Source: a virus
Length of the DNA stretch: 10,288 bases
UHGV virus genome: UHGV-0355879
Reading direction: 5' to 3' (one strand)
The position numbers were made by a program, and so were the translations under genes. The notes below the pieces were generated by a model that did no database searches, had not been told where the DNA came from, and was given only the letters and a program-made list of their open reading frames with translations. Numbering within the stretch: the first letter of the stretch is position 1; the number at the start of each line of letters is the position of its first letter. Of the stretch, positions 1 through 9,697 are shown in pieces.

Positions 1-1150
1 GATATAACTCATGCAAGTTATTAAACATTACTTTGAAAGCACTACTTATTATTTCATCTGATGTTGCTGAGAATGCCTTTATCAAATGCTTGCTAAAAGA
101 TTGGTTAATTTTTGATTTTTGTAACTCACTACTCAGCATAGCTAACAAGTCAAAATCTTTTAAAGATTCCTTTATCTCTTCATATTCCTCTATCGCATTT
201 GCTGAGTAAGGATCGAATCTTATAGGAAGACTCATAAATTTAGCCTTCATAGGAGATTCTTCATCTTCATCATTACCATGCAACTTAGCTTTAGTTACTG
301 AAAGGAACTCTTCTTTAGTAACAATATTGGTTTTTTGTTTCTGTAAAGTTAGCCCTTCATTTTCCATCAGTTTTTTACTAAGCAAAGTTAAAATCTTATG
401 AGCATCCTCTCTAGAGTTACAAAAAATAACAAAGTCGTCGACATAACGCTTATAGTTGATTCTATTCATAGACAATAATTTATCAATAGAATCTAGAGCT
501 AGTTCTGCTAATATTCTAGAGGCAGGACATCCAACTGGTACTCCATATGATTTTGTTTCACTAAATGTCTGTAGTAATTTCTTGATTTTCCCAGAGTAAT
601 CTTTATTGGGGTCGACTCTATCTAACGCATTTTCTAAACGGTGGTGATAAATACGCGGATAGAAATCTGCTATATCGCATGTAAGTACATACTTTATTTC
701 ATCGTTAGAACATTCAGAGATACTGTCTTCTTGATATTTTCTCCAAGAGATCTCTTTATCAAAAAGAGAACCATCAGCAAGGTTTGGTTTAAAGCGATAT
801 GAATAAACCTGCGTTTTAGTAGATCTATTCCTTTCAATATCATCAGCGATTTTTAAAACTAACCCAAGAAAAAAAGCATTCCAGAATGGATCAATTTGGG
901 TCGCCCACCTGTAACCATAATAACCAATACTTGAAAAGCTATTAATTATGTTTGGTGGAATCTCGATCCTTTTATTTTCAAAGTCATTAAATGTTTGCAT
1001 TAATGCAGTTTTTACTTTCTCCTTATCATCTTCAAATAACCGACTTTCAAATGGGTAAGGGAAAATATCTGTATCGCCGTGCTTTATAATATTTTCCAAT
1101 GCAAGCTCAAAGCAATTTTCTAGTTTACTACTATCAAACTCGTTACTCAT
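1..1150 (-). CDS. Reverse transcriptase, Abi/DRT-like (partial; C-terminal part lies beyond the left window edge)
   Basis: Absent from the ORF track because it runs off the edge. Minus-strand ATG at 1150..1148, open with no stop through position 1 (383 codons). Translation starts MSNEFDSSKLENCFELALEN. RT motif A-like TCDIADFYPRI (codons 650..676), motif B-like GVPVGCPASRILAELAL and catalytic motif C RYVDDFVIF (YVDD codons 434..445) were checked at nucleotide level. Start overlaps the integrase stop (ATGAGTAA, 1143..1150). Confidence 0.6.
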   Translation of the reverse strand, partial: MSNEFDSSKLENCFELALENIIKHGDTDIFPYPFESRLFEDDKEKVKTALMQTFNDFENKRIEIPPNIINSFSSIGYYGYRWATQIDPFWNAFFLGLVLKIADDIERNRSTKTQVYSYRFKPNLADGSLFDKEISWRKYQEDSISECSNDEIKYVLTCDIADFYPRIYHHRLENALDRVDPNKDYSGKIKKLLQTFSETKSYGVPVGCPASRILAELALDSIDKLLSMNRINYKRYVDDFVIFCNSREDAHKILTLLSKKLMENEGLTLQKQKTNIVTKEEFLSVTKAKLHGNDEDEESPMKAKFMSLPIRFDPYSANAIEEYEEIKESLKDFDLLAMLSSELQKSKINQSFSKHLIKAFSATSDEIISSAFKVMFNNLHELY

Positions 1151-2327
1151 TCACATTCTCCTTAATAAAAATATAATCTGAATACCACTGCATCATATCA
1201 CGGCGTTTATCAATATATTGAGCATGATTATACGTACCTCTAATATTATTCTTATCTATATGAGCAAGCTGTATTTCTATCCAAGCCGAATCATATCCTT
1301 TTTCGTGGAGGATAGTAGATAAGGAATGTCGAAATCCATGACCAGTAAGTTTTCCACCATAACCAATACGCTTGATAACTTGGTTAATACTCGCCTCACT
1401 CATAGGCTTGTTCGGATCGTTCCGCCCCGGAAAAACATAACTATACTTCCCTGTCATCATCTTGAGTTCATTTAGCAAATCTAACGCTTGAGTCGACAAA
1501 GGCACAAGGTGTGATCTGCGCATTTTCATCCTTTCAGCAGGAATTTCCCAAATAGCGTTATCTAAATCAAATTCTGACCATAATGCCGCACGTAATTCGA
1601 TGGTTCTAACACCTGTAATCATGAGCAATTTCGTGGCAATCAGGACAAGCCGACTTCCGGTATATCCGTTTAAGGCGCGAAGAAAATCAGGTATCTCATT
1701 AGCCTTTAAGAACGGGAAATGATTTGATTGGTGTACATTGAGGGCGCTTGAAAGATCCGCAGCAGGGTTAAACTCAGCCCTTCCAGTAGCAATGGCATAG
1801 CGGAAAACTTCTGAGCATCGCTGCCGAACTTTGCGCATTTTTTCTAATGCACCGCGCTTTTCGATTTTACGCAGCACATTAAGCAGTTCTAGCGGTTTAA
1901 TCTCTCCCACTGGCCTTGTTCCCACATAAGGAAAAATGTCGTTCTTAAACGCTTCCATGATGTCTGATGCATATCCCGCCGACCATTTGGTAGACTTCTG
2001 TTGATGCCACTCTCTGGCTATCTTTTCGAAGGCGTTCTCTGACTCTGTTTGCAGAGCCAGCTTTTGCTCTTTTCGAACCTCACTAGGGTTCTTTCCTTCT
2101 GCCACAAGTTTTCGAGCTTCATCACGACGGGAACGAGCATCAGCAAGAGTGATCGTTGGGTAAACACCAAGCGAGATCATTTTGGGTTTACCGGCATAGC
2201 GATAACGAAATCGCCAGCTTTTACTTCCATTTGGCTCTACAAGTAAAGACAACCCTTGCCCATCCCCAAGTGTATAGGCTTTAGCTTCAGGTTTAGCACG
2301 GCGAATCTGCATATCATTTAGGGGCAT
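1143..2327 (-). CDS. int: Tyrosine integrase, P4 / CP4-57 (IntA-like) family
   Basis: 394-aa ORF. N-terminal arm-binding region (MPLNDMQIRRAKPEAKAYTLGDGQGLSLLVEPNGSKSWRFRYRY) is typical of P4-type integrases. C-terminal catalytic signature present: R in GVRTIELRAALW, HGFRHSL box, LAHIDKNNIRGTYNHAQY with catalytic Tyr. Recalled E. coli IntA shares long stretches (AERMKMRRSHLVPLS vs AARMKMNRDHTVPLS; MMQWYSDY vs MMQWWADL). Confidence 0.85.
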   Translation of the reverse strand: MPLNDMQIRRAKPEAKAYTLGDGQGLSLLVEPNGSKSWRFRYRYAGKPKMISLGVYPTITLADARSRRDEARKLVAEGKNPSEVRKEQKLALQTESENAFEKIAREWHQQKSTKWSAGYASDIMEAFKNDIFPYVGTRPVGEIKPLELLNVLRKIEKRGALEKMRKVRQRCSEVFRYAIATGRAEFNPAADLSSALNVHQSNHFPFLKANEIPDFLRALNGYTGSRLVLIATKLLMITGVRTIELRAALWSEFDLDNAIWEIPAERMKMRRSHLVPLSTQALDLLNELKMMTGKYSYVFPGRNDPNKPMSEASINQVIKRIGYGGKLTGHGFRHSLSTILHEKGYDSAWIEIQLAHIDKNNIRGTYNHAQYIDKRRDMMQWYSDYIFIKENVNE

Positions 2328-2649: not shown

Positions 2650-3864
2650 ATGAAATACAAGCCGGATCAATACATCATCTCTGATAGTTACGGAGTTTAT
2701 TACGTCAGGATCTCAATTCCTATATGGCTTCGTAATGCATTTGGTGGAAGAAAAACTCTCGTCCGTAGTCTGAACACTTCCGATCTTCGTGTGGCACGTA
2801 GGAAGCGTGATGTTATAGCAGACGAGTTTCACCACATCAGGCAAATTGCAGAGCCACCAAAACCGGACAGCCTGCAGGACACAATCAGCTATCTAAAGAG
2901 CGTTGCTAAGTACGCAAAAGCTGCCCCGAAAGCATCAGCGCCAATTATCTCCCAATGCCCCTCTCTGAATAAGATGTTGGAGATTTACCTCACGCATAAC
3001 GCTGATCGCCTGAAAATTGGAACATTAAGCAAGACCAGGAAAGCCGTAGAACTGTTTCTGAATTACCTGCGAAAGAAGGATGTGGAACTAAACGATATCA
3101 ACCGTACCACCGTTACAGGCTGGCTTGATCATCTCCGAGAAACAAAGGCAGTCCAAACAGTGGCTAACTATCTTTCTGCAATGGCAAACATTCTCGATCT
3201 TGCCTCTTCCCGATACCAGGACGCCCCACAGCTGGAAAGTAACGTATTCAGAGGGCATAAACTCAACACAGCGCAGAGCCGCCAGAGTTACGAGGCATTC
3301 ACGGACGAAGAAATTACGAAGCTCATTAGCACGTTTAACAAGTTAGGAGAGGACGAATTAAGGGATTTAAGCGCCATAGCCGCTTATAGCGGAATGCGCA
3401 TCAATGAAATAGCCAGTTTGAAATCTGACAATATCCGTGAAGTTGAGGGGGTGTTATGTTTCGATGTATTGGAAGGAAAGACAGCTAACGCTTCCAGGCT
3501 AATCCCATGCCATAGTGCGATTAAAACAATGGTCCTGGAACGCTGCCAGAAGCCGCACAACGGCTTTTTATTTTACCGTGCAAGTGTGACCAAGAGAGAG
3601 GACGGCAAGCGCTCCTCATGGCACGTAAACCGCTTTGGACGGCTTAAACGCGATATTCTCCCAGGGCAAGAAAACAAGGTGTTTCACTCGTACCGCCATG
3701 CCGTGATCAGTAAGCTAAACGCCGCCGGAGTGGATGAATCTCGTATTGCCTTGCTCGCGGGCCACTCATTTGGAGAAACTGAATCTTTCAAGACGTATTC
3801 GAAATCCGTTCCTGAGCGAATAGTGAAGGAACTAAAAGAATATATCGAATTAATCAAATATTAA
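2650..3864 (+). CDS. Tyrosine-type site-specific recombinase / integrase (second, unrelated to the P4-type one)
   Basis: 404-aa ORF, GGTGGA-like RBS 4-5 nt upstream. N-terminus (YYVRISIPIWLRNAFGGRKTLVRSLNTSDLRVARRKRDVIADEF) matches the arm-binding pattern of genomic-island integrases. Catalytic residues in SGMRINEIASL (Arg), HSYRHAVISKL (His-x-x-Arg), LLAGHSFGETESFKTYSK (His, Tyr). Confidence 0.8.
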   Translation: MKYKPDQYIISDSYGVYYVRISIPIWLRNAFGGRKTLVRSLNTSDLRVARRKRDVIADEFHHIRQIAEPPKPDSLQDTISYLKSVAKYAKAAPKASAPIISQCPSLNKMLEIYLTHNADRLKIGTLSKTRKAVELFLNYLRKKDVELNDINRTTVTGWLDHLRETKAVQTVANYLSAMANILDLASSRYQDAPQLESNVFRGHKLNTAQSRQSYEAFTDEEITKLISTFNKLGEDELRDLSAIAAYSGMRINEIASLKSDNIREVEGVLCFDVLEGKTANASRLIPCHSAIKTMVLERCQKPHNGFLFYRASVTKREDGKRSSWHVNRFGRLKRDILPGQENKVFHSYRHAVISKLNAAGVDESRIALLAGHSFGETESFKTYSKSVPERIVKELKEYIELIKY

Positions 3865-4516: not shown

Positions 4517-6388
4517 TCACCCCCCTGTGCTGCTCTGACCGCTCAAGGCTGACAAGGTGAGCGACTGTGTAAAACTGGCTTGTGAGGCTCTCGCCTGGAA
4601 ATCAATGTAATCGCTCAGCCTTGAGCTATCGCTGGCGATAGTTAGCGGAACAGACGCTTCAAGATTGAGATTGAATACAGGTGCAAGATTGTACGCTGGC
4701 GCACTATTGGTGCTGGTTAGGGATGATATAGCAGAATCACGAAGCGCTCCCCCTTTCAGAGAATCACCATTCAGGCCGTATTGTTCTACCGCTGTCCCTG
4801 TAGGCTGATCATCTATCCCTAACCAACCTTTAACGGCATGACCTACACTACGGCTGTCCCACCCTGTCTTGTCCTGCACCCAATCGGCAGCACTGTTGGC
4901 ACTTCCTGTAACAGCACCATCATACAAACTCTGTGCCGCTGGCTTATCGCTACCAGTGAACCATTGAGGGAAACGTTCTTTCAGCCCTGCATTGATATCA
5001 CTCACAACACTGGAAATCTCACCCACAAACCCAGTGATTTCTTTCGAGAGATTGCCTAAGCCCTCTCCAAGCATTCCCGCCGCTTCGGTGATAATTTTGG
5101 TTTTCCTTACCAGATCGTCGCCCCCATCGGCAAAGCCTTTCATCCAGCCTGTAAACAACTGATTGTCTATTCCATTCATCAGATTACCCATAGCAACACT
5201 CAAATCGCCATACTCATAAACCTGCTTGATCATTTCGTCGTTCAGCGTCTGACCGGACTCAATGAGAGTTCTTAGCGTCTTGTTATACTCTGCACCGTTG
5301 TTCATGAACATATCGGTGTAGTGCATCAGGTCATCACCTAAACTCTCAATCAGCGTACCAATCTGAGCCTGTGACATACCACGGCGTTGCCCTTCATTCA
5401 CCGTAGCTTGAACAAAATCGAGTGGTGAATCTTGGAACTTGGAAATCTGATCCTTACTCCATCCAAATTTGTTCATTATCGACGTAATGCCACCATCCCC
5501 ACCCTTCCATTCGCCATTCTTCATTTGAGCATCGTTAACAGTCATGGCGAGGCGTTCACGCACATCTTTCATGTTATCGACGGCTTTTGAGGTATTAGCT
5601 GAATCAACACCGTGTTGCTGTCCCCAGGCCACCATCGTTTTTATGGCGTTTGGGTTGGTTTTCACACGTTCACTCATTCTCACCAGTTCGAGGTTATCAT
5701 TCCCTTTGTCAATAATTCGCTGCCCCACTCCGAGGGAGCCAGCCGTTAACGCAAGGCTTCCTAATACCCCACCACCGACGATAGGAGCATTCCCGCCCTT
5801 CTGAGCCTTTAGCTTAGTGGCTGCTGCGGCATACTGGGTACGCTGTGCCTGTGTCACTTTGGCTTGCTGTGCGGCTTCTCTGCGTAACAGGGTTACACGC
5901 TCACGAATAGATGCGTTCATACGGGCACTGGTCAGATTGCCTTTGGCAAATTCCTCTGTTTGCTGACGTATGAAACGTAACGCTTCATATTGAGATTTAG
6001 GATCAAGTCCGTATTTACCTTTAATTCCTGACACTTGTAGCCCTGCATGGCGAAGTTTAAGCTCGGCTGTCTCTTGGTGCTTCTGTAGCTGCTGCTTCGC
6101 TTTCAGATTGGCCTTTTCATCCCTGGCTTTCTGCTTCTCTGCCGCACGTTGGGCTTTCATTTCCTTCGTATCACGAGGTTTATCATTAAAACGTGCATCA
6201 TCGGCTTGTTGACGAGCTTTCTGTCTGCGCTGCTTCTGAGCCTGGAAGCGAATCTTGGGATCGGCTATTTTCTGGAAGTGCTTTTGAAGGTTATCCGCTG
6301 CGGCTTTAGCCAGAGCAATGCTCTGCTTATCCACCACGAATGTAACCGTATTGCGGATCTGACTGACCGAAATATCAAGCATCGCCAC
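4517..6388 (-). CDS. Large phage structural-like protein, tail tape-measure-like (tentative)
   Basis: 623-aa ORF. Lys/Gln/Arg/Ala-rich predicted coiled-coil N-terminal third (KQRRQKARQQADDARFNDKPRDTKEMKAQRAAEKQKARDEKANLKAKQQLQKHQETAELKLRHAGLQ), then a Gly-rich hydrophobic segment (GGNAPIVGGGVLGSLALTAGSLGVGQ) and repeated G-x-G stretches. The track start is GTG at 6388; an in-frame ATG at 6382 with GAAAGG 8 nt upstream is the more likely start and makes an ATGCTTGA overlap with the preceding gene's stop. Confidence 0.65.
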   Translation of the reverse strand: MAMLDISVSQIRNTVTFVVDKQSIALAKAAADNLQKHFQKIADPKIRFQAQKQRRQKARQQADDARFNDKPRDTKEMKAQRAAEKQKARDEKANLKAKQQLQKHQETAELKLRHAGLQVSGIKGKYGLDPKSQYEALRFIRQQTEEFAKGNLTSARMNASIRERVTLLRREAAQQAKVTQAQRTQYAAAATKLKAQKGGNAPIVGGGVLGSLALTAGSLGVGQRIIDKGNDNLELVRMSERVKTNPNAIKTMVAWGQQHGVDSANTSKAVDNMKDVRERLAMTVNDAQMKNGEWKGGDGGITSIMNKFGWSKDQISKFQDSPLDFVQATVNEGQRRGMSQAQIGTLIESLGDDLMHYTDMFMNNGAEYNKTLRTLIESGQTLNDEMIKQVYEYGDLSVAMGNLMNGIDNQLFTGWMKGFADGGDDLVRKTKIITEAAGMLGEGLGNLSKEITGFVGEISSVVSDINAGLKERFPQWFTGSDKPAAQSLYDGAVTGSANSAADWVQDKTGWDSRSVGHAVKGWLGIDDQPTGTAVEQYGLNGDSLKGGALRDSAISSLTSTNSAPAYNLAPVFNLNLEASVPLTIASDSSRLSDYIDFQARASQASFTQSLTLSALSGQSSTGG

Positions 6389-6693: not shown

Positions 6694-7725
6694 TTAAGCA
6701 GTGATGGTGATCTTCACTTGCATACCTAACGCATGGTTCACTGGTAATGCGCTGTTTTCGTGCATAACGTGGTAAGCATCGCCGCGCTCGCTCAGGTAGC
6801 CCCAAGAGTAGTATTCAGCAGGTGCAGCATCGATCAGCGCGAAGTTGCCAGAGGCAGCGCCGTAGATGTTCTGATAAGCATTTGTGCCTTTACTGAATAC
6901 CGGAACCGCCACCATGTCAGCATCATCTGGCATCTGTGCAAGGATCAGCGGATCTGTCACTTTAACAATGTCGATAGGCGCACCAGGTAGGCTAAACGTA
7001 CTAACACCAGGGAGAAGCTCGTGACGCTGGTAGAATAGGTTACGGTCGTCATATGGCGCTACATACTGGAACGCCTTAGACATACTGTCAGAGAAGCGAA
7101 TCTGGCTAAATGCAGCAGGTTTAGCGAATACGATCACTCGTTCAATCTGTCCAGCCAATCCACCTGCGGCAGCCTGAACTTTGTCTAAGATGGCATCAAA
7201 ATCCTGTGCCGCTGTCGCTGTGCTCACGCTGGCTGTCATTGGCACCACACCGAACAGTTCAGCATAAGAGATCAGTAGGTCATCAGTTGCAGGCGTATAA
7301 ACTTCACCTTTGAACAGAGCACGGGCCAGGTAGGATTCACGGGTACGAAGATAGGCAATCTTATGTTTCCCTGTGTACTCGGTGTACAGGTCGGTAACGG
7401 TTTGCTCGTAGTCCGTGCCTTGCACCCTTTTCCCTTGTACGTCTACTGGTTTGAAGGTGTCTTCCCTCGCAAACCAAGGGATCTCCACCAAATATTCTTT
7501 ACCATTCTGACGCGCGGTAGTGTCGTGGCTTGATGAATAACGACTCTGCGGGGTGTTAAACAGGCTGTAGTTATCATCCAGAAGCTGTGTCACCACCACT
7601 TTCGGATTCTGAACACCTACCCCGTCGAAGAGGTCGAGAGCATTCATAAGATAGTTACGTTCCGGCAGAGCCTGGAAGATTGGCGCTAAATCGACCATCT
7701 CACGCCCAATTGCGATTTTACTCAT
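6694..7725 (-). CDS. Phage major capsid protein, lambda gpE-like family (tentative)
   Basis: 343-aa ORF (lambda E is 341 aa) with AAGGAAG RBS 8 nt upstream. Sits directly after a roughly 120-aa decoration-like gene, the D-E order of lambda-type head modules. Assignment is by size, context and composition, not by verified alignment. Confidence 0.55.
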   Translation of the reverse strand: MSKIAIGREMVDLAPIFQALPERNYLMNALDLFDGVGVQNPKVVVTQLLDDNYSLFNTPQSRYSSSHDTTARQNGKEYLVEIPWFAREDTFKPVDVQGKRVQGTDYEQTVTDLYTEYTGKHKIAYLRTRESYLARALFKGEVYTPATDDLLISYAELFGVVPMTASVSTATAAQDFDAILDKVQAAAGGLAGQIERVIVFAKPAAFSQIRFSDSMSKAFQYVAPYDDRNLFYQRHELLPGVSTFSLPGAPIDIVKVTDPLILAQMPDDADMVAVPVFSKGTNAYQNIYGAASGNFALIDAAPAEYYSWGYLSERGDAYHVMHENSALPVNHALGMQVKITITA

Positions 7726-7741
7726 TATTTATCTTCCTTGA

Positions 7742-8101
7742 TTAAGAGGTGAAGAATGGACGGCATACGAACCCTTTGGATTCGAGCGTGGTGATAGCTG
7801 CGGCGTGATTAGCTGCGTGCAGGTTGTCGGCTTTCAGTGCTACGAAGCTGCCAACATTAGGCGCACGTAGGACATTCACGGTTTTACCGTCGCCAGCACT
7901 CACGAAATCACTTACCACCACAAAGGCATCATCGCCGGAGGTGTATAGAGCGCCATCAGCGCCGATAACATCGCCGCATTCAATATCTGCTGGCAGGTCG
8001 AAAACACGGCCTTCTACGACTGCAAAAGAATCAGTGGCGTAGCTCACTACGTCAGTGAAACTCTTACGAATTGGGAAAAGTTCGGTTAGGTCTACAATCA
8101 T
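7742..8101 (-). CDS. Head decoration protein-like (lambda gpD-like, tentative)
   Basis: 119-aa beta-rich, Gly/Val/Ala/Asp-rich ORF immediately upstream of the capsid gene (stop 7742, capsid ATG 7725). Start overlaps the preceding ORF stop (ATGA at 8098..8101). Confidence 0.45.
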   Translation of the reverse strand: MIVDLTELFPIRKSFTDVVSYATDSFAVVEGRVFDLPADIECGDVIGADGALYTSGDDAFVVVSDFVSAGDGKTVNVLRAPNVGSFVALKADNLHAANHAAAITTLESKGFVCRPFFTS

Positions 8102-8313
8102 TGTTGTTTGATTTCCTTGGATTTGATTGCGATCCGTTCCTGCATACTAAGTTGAGGTGTGTCCTCAGAAGGGAAATACTGGTCTACAGCTTTTTCTATT
8201 TCTTCAACGGTACATCCTGCCATTTCAGCCACTTTAGCTATTAACTCAGGATTAACTTGAATCACTTCGGATTTGTATTTTAGGATTCGGTCGCGATTGT
8301 TTATTAAGAACAT
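8098..8313 (-). CDS. Hypothetical protein (71 aa), first gene of the head operon
   Basis: ATG at 8313 preceded by AAGGAA with a 7-nt spacer; stop coupled to the next gene by an ATGA overlap. Confidence 0.5.
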   Translation of the reverse strand: MFLINNRDRILKYKSEVIQVNPELIAKVAEMAGCTVEEIEKAVDQYFPSEDTPQLSMQERIAIKSKEIKQQ

Positions 8314-8384
8314 TGTGTTGTTCCTTCGCGTTATAACTGCGTTTATCCTTCCATTAATAACGGAAGTGTTACATGCAGATTGTT

Positions 8385-8406
8385 AAAAAGGGGCGATTAA
8401 GCCCCT
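8385..8406 (-). terminator. Intrinsic terminator / attenuator upstream of the head operon
   Basis: Stem AGGGGC (8389..8394) / GCCCCT (8401..8406), loop GATTAA; read on the minus strand it is followed by TTTT (plus-strand A-run 8385..8389). Lies about 75 nt upstream of the 71-aa gene start. Confidence 0.45.
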
Positions 8407-8932
8407 GGAGAATATGCCCTTGTTAGAAAGCATTCTGTTAAAATCATTTTCGTTTCGGAGGATTATGATGTTAAAGAAAGGTTTCTTGAAAAAATGAAGG
8501 GCGCAACTGTTACGAATAACAGAAGTAGGATCGCCCGTCATTGCTCCCACTTCAAAACAGAAGCCCTTCTGTCATGGCGAGAAGTGGGAATGGAATTTCT
8601 TATCACCCTGGAATAGTAATAAGAGATTGCCAGCCTGAACGTAACTACCACTGACGGCGTTTATTCAGTCTGACTGCTTATAATCCTAACGGGGTTATAA
8701 GGTTTAGAGCACGGAATATGCTCTCTGAAAGAGAATGTGCGCGGTGATTGTTCGTTACCACCCGACACAAGTGGGAACGCCCGCGCCACCCTTTGGAACT
8801 AAACACAACAAAGGAAAACAACCAGCTTTCAGAGAGGATATTCAATGGGAGAGAGCGCCGCCTATGGGAAACGGCATTCTCAGGGAGTGCGTATTGTTAT
8901 ACGAGGGTGGAGTGATTCTAATACCTACCCTA
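8407..8932 (-). ncRNA. Candidate long untranslated leader or non-coding transcript (hypothetical)
   Basis: Roughly 525 nt between a near-consensus promoter (8939..8967) and a terminator (8385..8406), no minus-strand ORF of 65 aa or more. Contains several stem-loops: two-tier hairpin 8545..8589, hairpin 8677..8701, hairpin 8706..8724, hairpin 8739..8786. A 9-bp direct repeat AAGTGGGAA (8582..8590, 8769..8777) sits in two of the stems. Confidence 0.2.
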
Positions 8933-8938
8933 TAACTT

Positions 8939-8967
8939 ATTATGACACAAATAGCACAATATGTCAA
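8939..8967 (-). promoter_or_regulatory. Sigma70-type promoter on the minus strand (-35 TTGACA, 17-bp spacer, -10 CATAAT)
   Basis: Minus-strand TTGACA (plus 8962..8967), exactly 17 nt of spacer, then CATAAT (plus 8939..8944). Lies 16 bp downstream of the stop of the 113-aa gene and points toward the head operon. Confidence 0.45.
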
Positions 8968-8982
8968 GATATTTCGTAATAT

Positions 8983-9321
8983 TTATGTTATAGCGCATTC
9001 TTCCGCGATCTGGATGGCAAGCTCTCCGAGTTCAACGGTGATGTGTTCCATAGCGAGGGCAAGCTCCTCCATATCATTGGCAATGCGCCACGCCTGATCC
9101 ACGGTGACGGTATCCCCGTTCATCTGCACCAGGTGCTCTACAGCAGCATTCCAGTGTTCAAGGGCGGTGATTGCCTGTTCAGTGTATTGCAGCGCTTCCA
9201 GGAGCGCGGAGGGCGTTCTCTCACACCACGCCCTATTAACAAGCCACAGGGCTGGTAGATGCCAAATATCGTGGAAATAGTTAATTAGGGTGTTCATGGT
9301 GTCCATAGTTTTATTATTCAT
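8983..9321 (-). CDS. Hypothetical acidic helical protein (113 aa)
   Basis: Shortened from track ORF 8983..9468. ATG at 9321 is preceded by AAGGAA with a 7-nt spacer (as for the 71-aa gene) and overlaps the upstream gene's stop (ATGAATAA), whereas the 161-aa form would overlap that gene by about 155 nt. Confidence 0.5.
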   Translation of the reverse strand: MNNKTMDTMNTLINYFHDIWHLPALWLVNRAWCERTPSALLEALQYTEQAITALEHWNAAVEHLVQMNGDTVTVDQAWRIANDMEELALAMEHITVELGELAIQIAEECAIT

Positions 9322-9697
9322 TGTTGTTTTCCTTGTCGTCAAAGAGAATATCAAAATCTTGTATGTGGTGAGATAAGCCGTTAGTTTGGGAATACCCCAC
9401 CCAGTCAACATAGTTTTCTGCGTATAGCTGCCACTTCTTAAGATTCGATGAATCAACACGGTATTCACGGCGGCGGCGTGGTTTATAGAAGACGTTATCC
9501 GAAGATGCTAAAACATCCTGCAATAGTTCAAACTCTGCCCCTACGGGCACCGTTGCAGGGTATTCTATTATTTCGGTGATCCATTCTCCTGGAATAGACT
9601 CTCGTGCGAGGTCTTGTAGAGAAGAGGTGTATTTACGTTTGCTGGCGCGAGTGGCTTTTTCGATTCTAACAATGTTACTTCGTTCTTTTCGTCCCAT
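9314..9697 (-). CDS. Hypothetical protein (127 aa)
   Basis: ORF with GAGGA RBS upstream of ATG at 9697; basic N-terminus (MGRKERSNIVRIEKATRASKRKY), acidic C-terminus; stop coupled to the next gene. Confidence 0.5.
   Translation of the reverse strand: MGRKERSNIVRIEKATRASKRKYTSSLQDLARESIPGEWITEIIEYPATVPVGAEFELLQDVLASSDNVFYKPRRRREYRVDSSNLKKWQLYAENYVDWVGYSQTNGLSHHIQDFDILFDDKENNNE

Follow-up and report, generated by a model that had tools for sequence, protein, structure and literature searches.

The stretch of viral DNA considered here (10,288 nucleotides of the virus genome UHGV-0355879, in the following referred to as the window) is part of an Escherichia coli chromosomal island, whereby its positions 8250-9050 are 100% identical in strain RM10410 and 99.9% identical in two others, and a second version of this part, with 88.7% identity, is carried by nine further genomes. 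The minus strand holds every island gene bar the integrase. Between a gene of 112 amino acids (aa) on this strand (p112, 8983-9321) and the likewise minus-stranded 71-aa gene which is the first of the head operon (8098-8313), a region without annotated genes is found at positions 8314-8982, within which a promoter, a long folded leader RNA and two successive intrinsic terminators, T1 and T2, were identified ahead of the capsid and tail genes of the island. That this region is poor in open reading frames (ORFs) had been claimed by the original prediction and was confirmed: eight ORFs of at least 40 aa exist on both strands of 8314-8982, none of them being intact in more than 8 of 44 homologues, with those that keep one being near-identical relatives, and the Prokaryotic Genome Annotation Pipeline (PGAP) places no gene there in RM10410, MS6192 or E203449. 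No conserved translated small ORF was seen among the 44 homologues, and no conserved leader peptide was found. A plus-strand mini-ORF (GGAGG-ATGATG) between T1 and T2 was discarded, as it is intact in 0 of 44 relatives and its start codon and Shine-Dalgarno sequence are the arms and loop of a hairpin (H21).

The sigma-70 promoter TTGACA-17-CATAAT, which had been predicted at 8967..8939 on the minus strand, was likewise borne out. Its -35 element TTGACA (8967..8962) and its -10 element CATAAT (8944..8939) are separated by a 17-nt spacer carrying TG, and the site scores 11/12 with an extended -10, which renders it the best site in the 1.4 kb scanned; it begins 18 nt past the p112 stop codon. A score of at least 10/12 is reached by 36 of 45 homologues at the corresponding place of the alignment, whereby the -35 element is kept and the -10 element varies among CATAAT, TAGAAT, TACTAT and TATTAT. 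Transcription is expected to start near 8933-8931. Between the terminator and the first head-gene ATG no sigma-70-like site was found in the window or in the related loci L069 and L036. As operators, neither the inverted repeat CTATAAC/GTTATAG around the promoter, which has one arm in the coding end of p112 and is poorly conserved, nor the TGAATAAA/TGCATAA repeats present in other variants were given weight.

The predicted primary transcript (8933..8381, minus strand) is non-coding and highly structured and would measure about 450 nt to T1 and about 553 nt to T2. For the 553-nt RNA a minimum free energy of -175.3 kcal/mol was obtained as compared to -138.6 +/- 5.2 kcal/mol for dinucleotide shuffles (z = -7.08); both strands fold well singly (z = -7.1 for the minus and -6.3 for the opposite strand), so single-sequence folding gives no strand. 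Homologous loci were fetched via the capsid protein (4 genome, 80 metagenome and 29 IMG/VR loci). The gene order around the leader region is identical in all of them, and a profile of the region was detected in 61 loci, some of which encode a capsid protein only 54-57% identical to that of the window. The resulting alignment comprises 45 distinct full-length copies, 56-89% identical to the window (group i, i.e., the window type), and is a mosaic in which conserved blocks alternate with sites where one hairpin has given way to an unrelated one. Owing to this exchange of hairpin modules among relatives, RNAalifold recovered just 38 pairs from the raw MAFFT alignment, 15 of these with compensatory changes. 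The consensus was defined instead as those pairs which 45% or more of the minimum-energy folds of the single sequences have in common, and the 120 pairs thus obtained were then counted on the alignment. A standard pair is formed in 86.0% of the cells vs 43-46% in slid controls, a percentage which is inflated because the structure was derived from the same sequences, the double-change counts being the informative part: 40 pairs are changed on both sides (20-34 in slid controls), as are 237 cells (72-130), and the covariation score amounts to 0.19 (0.07-0.09). In four of the five measures 0 of 500 shuffles attain the observed values. Read in the minus-strand sense, the consensus contains 563 G·U and 141 A·C cells (about 4:1), while the same procedure applied to the opposite sense yields 56 recurring pairs with 96 G·U vs 98 A·C cells; the excess of G·U over A·C therefore assigns the RNA to the minus strand. 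Judged by the compensatory changes and the whole-hairpin swaps, both of which keep the structure, the folded RNA is under selection, and the covariance analysis across homologues thus came out in favour of a conserved structure. A search of Rfam at a permissive threshold, carried out with the window and the complete relative L003, gave no match at E <= 1.

Two intrinsic terminators follow each other at the 3' end of the leader. T1 (8542..8488, minus strand) possesses a long GC-based hairpin of -15.6 kcal/mol followed by UUUUUU, and a distal terminator is found in 39 of 39 distinct group i sequences, 153-211 nt before the ATG, where its hairpin takes three unrelated forms (GGGCG...CUGUUA-UUCG-UAACAG...CGCCC, CCCCCG...CGGGGG and CUGCCCCUG...CAGCAGGGGCA), all of them with a U-run behind. 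T2 (8406..8385, minus strand; AGGGGC-UUAAUC-GCCCCU with four U) lies 76 nt before the ATG of the first head gene and is the terminator that had been claimed at this position; it was missed by a generic scan and scores -10.9 kcal/mol in a dedicated hairpin/U-run scan. Its position is conserved across relatives in three of four leader groups, which are described below: when distinct intergenic sequences were counted and a proximal terminator was defined as a U-run preceded by a hairpin at least as stable as -8 kcal/mol, such a terminator was identified 42-104 nt before the first head-gene ATG in 38 of 39 sequences of group i, 14 of 14 of group ii and 23 of 23 of group iii. These proximal terminators are built from at least six unrelated hairpin sequences, and T2 is replaced by GGGCUAC-UUCG-GUAGCCC, GGCGAC-UUCG-GUCGCC and GAAGCGGC..GCCGCUUU (group i), and also by AAAGCCGGGG..CCGGCUUU and AAAGGCGGC..GCUGCCUUU. 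The position is hence kept while the sequence is replaced, as selection for terminator function predicts. The probability of T1 forming is about 1, and in folds from which its 3' arm is left out the 5' arm remains unpaired; with no competing antiterminator helix being found, refolding of the riboswitch or attenuator type at T1 is considered unlikely and a modification of the polymerase is favoured over it.

Downstream of T2, a further hairpin (8337..8378, minus strand; CUGC...GCAG) covaries among CUGC/GCAG, CUGUG/CACAG and CUGCG/CGCAG, and as this covariation lies past T2, the segment is therefore regarded as transcribed on the same strand. It is followed by the start region of the first head-operon gene (8311..8326, minus strand), with the Shine-Dalgarno sequence GAAGGAA at 8326..8320 and the ATG at 8313..8311, where AACGCGAAGGAA is invariant in group i. 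A CGCGA/UCGCG pairing of 8328-8332 with 8292-8296 (minus strand; RNAalifold columns 964-968 with 1006-1010) brackets Shine-Dalgarno sequence and AUG; being invariant, it is uninformative on selection, and it may be a translational element.

The same layout recurs in leaders that cannot be aligned with that of the window. Four mutually unalignable leader groups were distinguished, which share the order of a gene at the p112 position, a promoter, a folded leader, a terminator, 40-100 nt and the first head gene. Group i (TTGACA-17-CATAAT with TG) has a leader of about 550 nt (z -7.1) and 76 nt from T2 to the ATG. In group ii, the Klebsiella type with a capsid identity of 72%, TTGACA-17-TAATAT (TG) precedes a leader of about 350 nt (z -5.35) and about 80 nt to the ATG, while in group iii, the common E. 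coli type with a capsid identity of 53%, the same promoter sequence (TTGACA-17-TAATAT, TG) precedes a leader of about 190 nt (z -5.8) and about 68 nt to the ATG. Of 5426 complete E. coli genomes, 307 carry group iii, whose integration site is thrW, beside paoD (L069 5040-5420; L117), and all its island genes, the capsid gene excepted, are annotated as hypothetical. Group iv (L110-L113) possesses the promoter TTTGCA-18-TATAAT right after the gene at the p112 position, an ORF-poor stretch of about 990 nt (L110 4402-5395), a leader of about 920 nt (z -8.2), a less canonical hairpin and 38 nt to the ATG. The predicted leader of L110 starts with the same AGGGGUAG 5' end; its size of about 920 nt falls in the range of the largest bacterial non-coding RNAs (ncRNAs). 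A covariance model of the central domain of the group i leader (R1) matches group ii leaders at the right place and on the right strand, weakly (L033 E=0.006, L030 0.013), and four further group ii loci at E = 0.1-0.8; it gave no match in the leaders of group iii or iv. Taken from these comparisons, the promoter-leader-terminator layout is conserved far beyond sequence similarity.

The elements of the group i leader are given here in 5' to 3' direction, all lying on the minus strand. The RNA 5' end (AU)AGGGGU is common to all four leader groups, and the hairpins SL1 to SL3 lie just downstream of the inferred start. The 5'-terminal SL1 (8905..8930; GGGUAGG...CCACCC) carries the conserved loop UUCGAAUCA, the small SL2 (8890..8903; CGUAU-AACA-AUACG) is missing in some relatives, and SL3 (8851..8881) carries the invariant loop UUUCCCAUAG on a helix (helix 2) that is 99.4% paired with 4 pairs changed on both sides. 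In L012 and L051 the SL3 pairing UGCCG/CGGCA is replaced by GCAUCAU/AUGGUGC, and some relatives possess a second copy of an SL3-type hairpin. An exact scan of IMG/VR with the SL3 motif retrieved the same islands only. Next comes a central branched domain (8714..8843), which is closed by the long-range helix I1 (8843..8826 with 8731..8714) and contains a U-rich strand, hairpin H6 (8814..8790) and the GC hairpin H7/H8 (8787..8739); helix 8, which corresponds to the stem-loop predicted at 8739..8786, shows double changes in 8 of its 9 pairs. I1 measures 18 bp in the window and its duplex 17-20 bp across variants, in several compensatory versions of -12.6 to -26.7 kcal/mol. Its 3' strand (8731..8714) can also pair with the 10 nt that follow it and then supplies the 5' arm of a local hairpin (8726..8706), which had been predicted at 8706..8724 and whose 7-8 bp amount to -5.7 to -10.7 kcal/mol; the two pairings are thus mutually exclusive. 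In essentially every variant, compensatory changes maintain both of them (three-way covariation). By this pattern, I1 and the local hairpin look like a conserved bistable RNA element; T1 follows about 170 nt further downstream, and the structure of the element could be linked neither to T1 nor to T2.

Further downstream, hairpin H9 (8677..8701) carries the conserved loop CCGUUAGG, with 3 of the 4 pairs of helix 9 changed on both sides. A kissing pair of its loop GUUAG with CUAAC before T2 showed no covariation and was dropped. H10-H12 (8674..8629; helices 10-12) are further hairpins, and H13 (8626..8598) is swapped for another hairpin (ACAC-UCCCGAAA-GUGU) in about half of the relatives. The hairpin HPx (8545..8589) is built from a 9-bp outer stem and an inner ACAGAA-GGGC-UUCUGU; the outer stem TCCCACTTC/GAAGTGGGA becomes CCTCATTTT/AAAATGAGG in about 20 sequences, whereby three pairs (columns 646-648 with 703-705) each have both sides changed in 18-20 sequences. 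Between the terminators a long hairpin (H20/H21, 8425..8486; UUUAACAUCAU...AUGAUUUUAA) with a CCUCC-containing loop is found, whose helices 20-21 are 91% paired and nearly invariant. The four stem-loops named in the original prediction hence all exist and covary or are swapped, while T1, the long-range 18-bp helix and no fewer than six other hairpins were missing from its list. A different outcome was obtained for the 9-bp direct repeat AAGTGGGAA, to which the prediction had attached meaning: it is present in the window, but its second copy is lost in the closest variant and absent from most homologues, and about 1.2 such 9-bp pairs are expected by chance in 800 nt (C(800,2)/4^9). Being at chance level and not conserved, it was rejected also as a P4-like RNA target or iteron.

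Considering these findings, the reading favoured here, with about even confidence, is that the region controls the structural operon of the island, with its capsid and tail genes, and acts as a terminator-gated leader whose read-through would require an antitermination input. The strong sigma-70 promoter right behind the last upstream gene would transcribe the long folded leader, and transcripts would start constitutively, or at any rate from a very strong promoter, and by default end at T1 and then at T2, whereby a 450-550-nt non-coding RNA would accumulate and little capsid mRNA would be formed. Expression of the capsid, decoration and tape-measure genes would occur only once RNA polymerase has become termination-resistant, the trigger for this probably being infection by a helper phage or induction of the island, and the folded leader would probably act as loading site or effector of this polymerase change. 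A read-through-controlled late operon is assumed to be the most economical explanation because the layout is conserved and no promoter-like site is present between terminator and head gene.

A constitutive promoter with a terminated leader ahead of conditional phage or satellite genes has precedents in the lambda pR'-6S RNA-tR' unit with its antiterminator Q and in the PLE leader of P4. As in lambda, a strong promoter is located right after the preceding gene, the leader would be terminated by default and an intrinsic terminator precedes promoterless structural genes; an intrinsic terminator between a promoter and late genes lacking a sigma-70-like promoter of their own is what characterizes Q-type control. 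The small gene immediately upstream (p112) also corresponds in position to Q. The lambda leader of about 194 nt, however, needs no conserved fold, whereas the leaders described here measure 190-920 nt with a covariation-supported structure, and unlike in lambda the terminators are in tandem and neither a conserved -10-like pause element nor a Q-like protein was identified. It is because the large fold itself is under selection, unlike in the lambda pR' and P4 leaders, that the RNA is expected to be a loading site or effector. With the immunity leader of P4 (promoter PLE, CI RNA) and the c4 RNA of P1/P7, the region would share a constitutive promoter, premature termination and a leader RNA as the abundant product, and P4 is likewise a satellite element which keeps quiet by premature termination in a leader. 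Termination in P4 is Rho-dependent and proceeds via a short processed RNA pairing with two repeated targets, while the terminators found here are intrinsic; a repeat-and-complement trio of the P4 CI/P1 c4 type (UUCCCACUU twice, GAAGUGGGA once) is not conserved in the homologues, most of which miss the second UUCCCACUU copy. Moreover, the P4 leader controls replication genes, whereas the leader described here precedes capsid and tail genes.

Several points weigh against a terminator-gated leader. No boxA (CGCUCUUA), the element that a boxB hairpin follows in N/nut antitermination, was found within one mismatch in 8314-8982, and the -10-like pause hexamer is not conserved, TAGAAT at about +14..+19 of the window transcript being TCGAAT in most relatives, which thus lack the A at its second position. 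The U-runs are modest for T2 (5 U) and for some variants (UUCUCUUU). Among the neighbouring genes no antiterminator candidate was found, Pfam and PHROGs being silent. For p112 a confident model was obtained (AlphaFold, predicted local distance difference test score (pLDDT) 86), which is a plain antiparallel three-helix bundle without a Foldseek match at E < 0.3 in PDB or BFVD and without significant Pfam or PHROG match; p112 was thus dropped as a Q analogue, its only matches being generic helical bundles. The model of p127 is unusable (pLDDT 56). A distant blastn search of the 801-nt region against 50,697 phage records gave no match. A Q-type mechanism would furthermore not need a conserved fold of 0.2-0.9 kb, so the structure may serve another purpose, and a helper-specific promoter that is not sigma-70-like may follow T2; one leader group has TATAAATA after the terminator, the other groups do not. 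Finally, where transcription would start and stop, whether the head genes depend on read-through and what would cause it are deduced from the sequence, as are expression, the efficiency of termination and read-through as such. The original proposal of an antitermination-controlled late operon is hence retained in that promoter, structured leader and terminator before the head genes are real, but boxA, pause element, Q-like protein and repeat were not borne out. Relatives carry HTH_36 and DUF6945 winged-helix proteins further upstream, and these look like replication initiators rather than antiterminators.

Among the other explanations, the one that survives best assumes a stand-alone gene for a large trans-acting ncRNA, with a role in immunity or maintenance, as decoy or sponge, or in structure or assembly, whereby T1 and T2 would end the RNA gene and the upstream operon and transcription of the head genes would start at a helper-dependent promoter of a kind which the scans do not recognize. 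This explanation is regarded as serious and rather unlikely. In its favour, a strong promoter and terminators belong to the RNA itself, its whole fold and not merely its ends is conserved by covariation, the loops UUUCCCAUAG, CCGUUAGG and UUCGAAUCA show the invariance expected of loops bound by protein, leaders of up to 920 nt in one group are large for a mere attenuator, and non-coding transcripts are the most abundant ones in the satellites called phage-inducible chromosomal island-like elements (Vibrio PLEs; PMC7567579). It is opposed by the tightly kept distance from terminator to ATG, which fits a role in cis, and by the finding that the sequences behind the terminator show no motif common to all the groups which might serve as a helper-specific promoter. 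The Rfam scan, curated antisense immunity RNA families included, gave no match, and among 12 island genes of the window none proved an outlier when its translation-start region was paired with the leader (all |z| < 1.6), this being a weak test as duplexfold with a 553-nt partner gives loose duplexes. A trans-acting RNA is compatible with a terminator-gated leader, as the terminated leader would itself be an abundant ncRNA.

RNA-only processive antitermination of the kind known from HK022 put or the Bacillus eps-associated RNA (EAR) is considered improbable. Here, the leader would bind its own polymerase, so that T1 and T2 would be passed only by transcripts begun at this promoter; the main task of the terminators would be to shield the head genes against transcription from upstream, the promoter being the point of control. 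As with put and EAR, the conserved fold resides exactly between promoter and terminators and no dedicated protein antiterminator is evident; with the promoter located 18 nt past a stop codon, upstream transcription would also enter the leader, which renders insulating terminators useful. However, given a near-consensus promoter without a clear conserved operator, the head genes would always be on, which would be costly and unlikely for a quiescent island, and constitutive read-through is hard to reconcile with silence. Moreover, put and EAR comprise 70-120 nt with defined two-stem or pseudoknot folds, whereas the leaders described here, at 190-920 nt, are 3-10 times larger, vary in length between groups and are composed of mosaic modules, and the Rfam scan detected no similarity to any family. 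Highly improbable, finally, is an element acting at the level of DNA, be it a packaging (cos/pac) site or an iteron-type origin with the hairpins as incidental inverted repeats, since, although cos of lambda-type phages lies just upstream of the first head-operon gene and the region is non-coding and conserved, it contains no tandem repeats or iterons (by which the iteron origin offered as an alternative in the original prediction is rejected), its best match to lambda cosN is 9/12 and at chance level and no similar DNA was found among the phage records searched (which together with the RNA-type covariation makes the packaging site unlikely), the covariation, the 4:1 excess of G·U over A·C and the twice as many conserved pairs on one strand are the signature of RNA, and a separate ORF-poor stretch of 1.7-3 kb beside Rep-like winged helix-turn-helix (wHTH) genes in related islands is a better candidate for an origin.

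The terminator-gated leader favoured here belongs to an island whose remaining genes are as follows. The DUF6538-type integrase (2650-3864, plus strand) belongs to the island and is followed, all on the minus strand, by a 92-aa gene, the gene of a 623-aa protein (4517-6388) that matches a PHROG 'tape measure' family (4e-97), a 65-aa gene, the gene of the gpE-like major capsid protein (6694-7725; PF03864), a 119-aa gene and the 71-aa gene; upstream of p112 a 127-aa gene (p127, 9314-9697) and, beyond it, a 94-aa gene (p94) are located. Over its C-terminal two thirds (residues 230-623) the 623-aa protein is 40% identical to a protein of the Phapecoctavirus (rV5-like) virulent myophages, and its homologue in phage anhysbys occupies the tape-measure position after sheath, tube and chaperone. 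A sister island (L117, 13165-13878) encodes a 'phage baseplate protein'. By Pfam and PHROGs no portal, protease or terminase was found among the island proteins, the matches being limited to integrases, the gpE-like capsid protein, the tape-measure homologue and wHTH proteins. Judged by Pfam and PHROGs, no dedicated satellite-finder having been run, the island fits none of the known satellite families, which comprise P4-like satellites (marker genes psu/sid/delta/alpha), phage-inducible chromosomal islands (PICIs; alpA and pri-rep without capsid), capsid-forming PICIs (major capsid protein together with portal, protease and TerS) and PLEs. Because it has a gpE-like capsid protein of its own and a tape-measure homologue without portal, protease and terminase, the island looks like an undescribed type of satellite of virulent phages, the helper phage, if there is any, being guessed solely from the tape-measure homology. 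The capsid protein family is restricted to Enterobacteriaceae, and neither the island family nor its RNA was found to be described in full-text searches of the literature.

The window contains two tyrosine integrase genes back to back, a P4-type one with an Arm-DNA-binding domain (1143-2327, minus strand) and that of DUF6538 type (2650-3864, plus strand), an arrangement suggestive of integrative elements inserted in tandem at a single site. Of the two, the left one is missing from RM10410, where paoD is found at that place. The Sakai prophages Sp1 and Sp2 at thrW are unrelated elements. Many members of the capsid family reside on 10-14 kb contigs of run-level assemblies (10,354; 10,551; 10,977; 12,996; 13,688; 13,750 and 13,773 bp), which may be whole or excised elements. 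At their far end, related islands possess an ORF-poor stretch of 1.6-3 kb beside HTH_36 and DUF6945 winged-helix genes (L003 14965-16692; L117 3775-6737; L002 15203-16800), which gave no Rfam match and is a candidate for an origin or a second large ncRNA.

A comparable satellite layout with abundant satellite ncRNAs was described by the transcriptome of the Vibrio PLE, and the PLE arrangement of a multi-kb ORF-poor stretch with the replication origin, beside MarR-like or wHTH genes, is resembled by these islands (PMC7567579). Like the PLE ncRNAs, GOLLD and ROOL, the leader would be a large non-coding transcript of a satellite or prophage. Unlike GOLLD and ROOL, it occurs in Enterobacteriaceae hosts and at a fixed position as leader of the head operon, and no covariance match to GOLLD, ROOL, HEARO, OLE, 6S, tmRNA or other large ncRNA families was found in Rfam. 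A bolder proposal, which is regarded as unlikely, would make the leader the first representative of a new RNA class, large (0.2-0.9 kb) and structured, which is carried by undescribed capsid/tape-measure satellites of virulent rV5-like phages, acting as infection sensor and switch: a helper or host factor would bind the invariant loops or flip the bistable helix, thereby yielding a terminator-resistant polymerase and hence capsids only in the presence of the helper.

If the region does act as a terminator-gated leader, the switch for particle production in a widespread, unstudied island family would become testable, and a large structured RNA with dozens of covarying pairs would be added to the short list of conserved bacterial RNAs of more than 400 nt. 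It would likewise help to examine, beyond the Vibrio PLE, in which way an infection is sensed by the satellites of virulent phages. Even if the RNA were merely a terminated by-product, the region would still represent a clean new case of lambda-6S-like late control outside the lambdoid phages.

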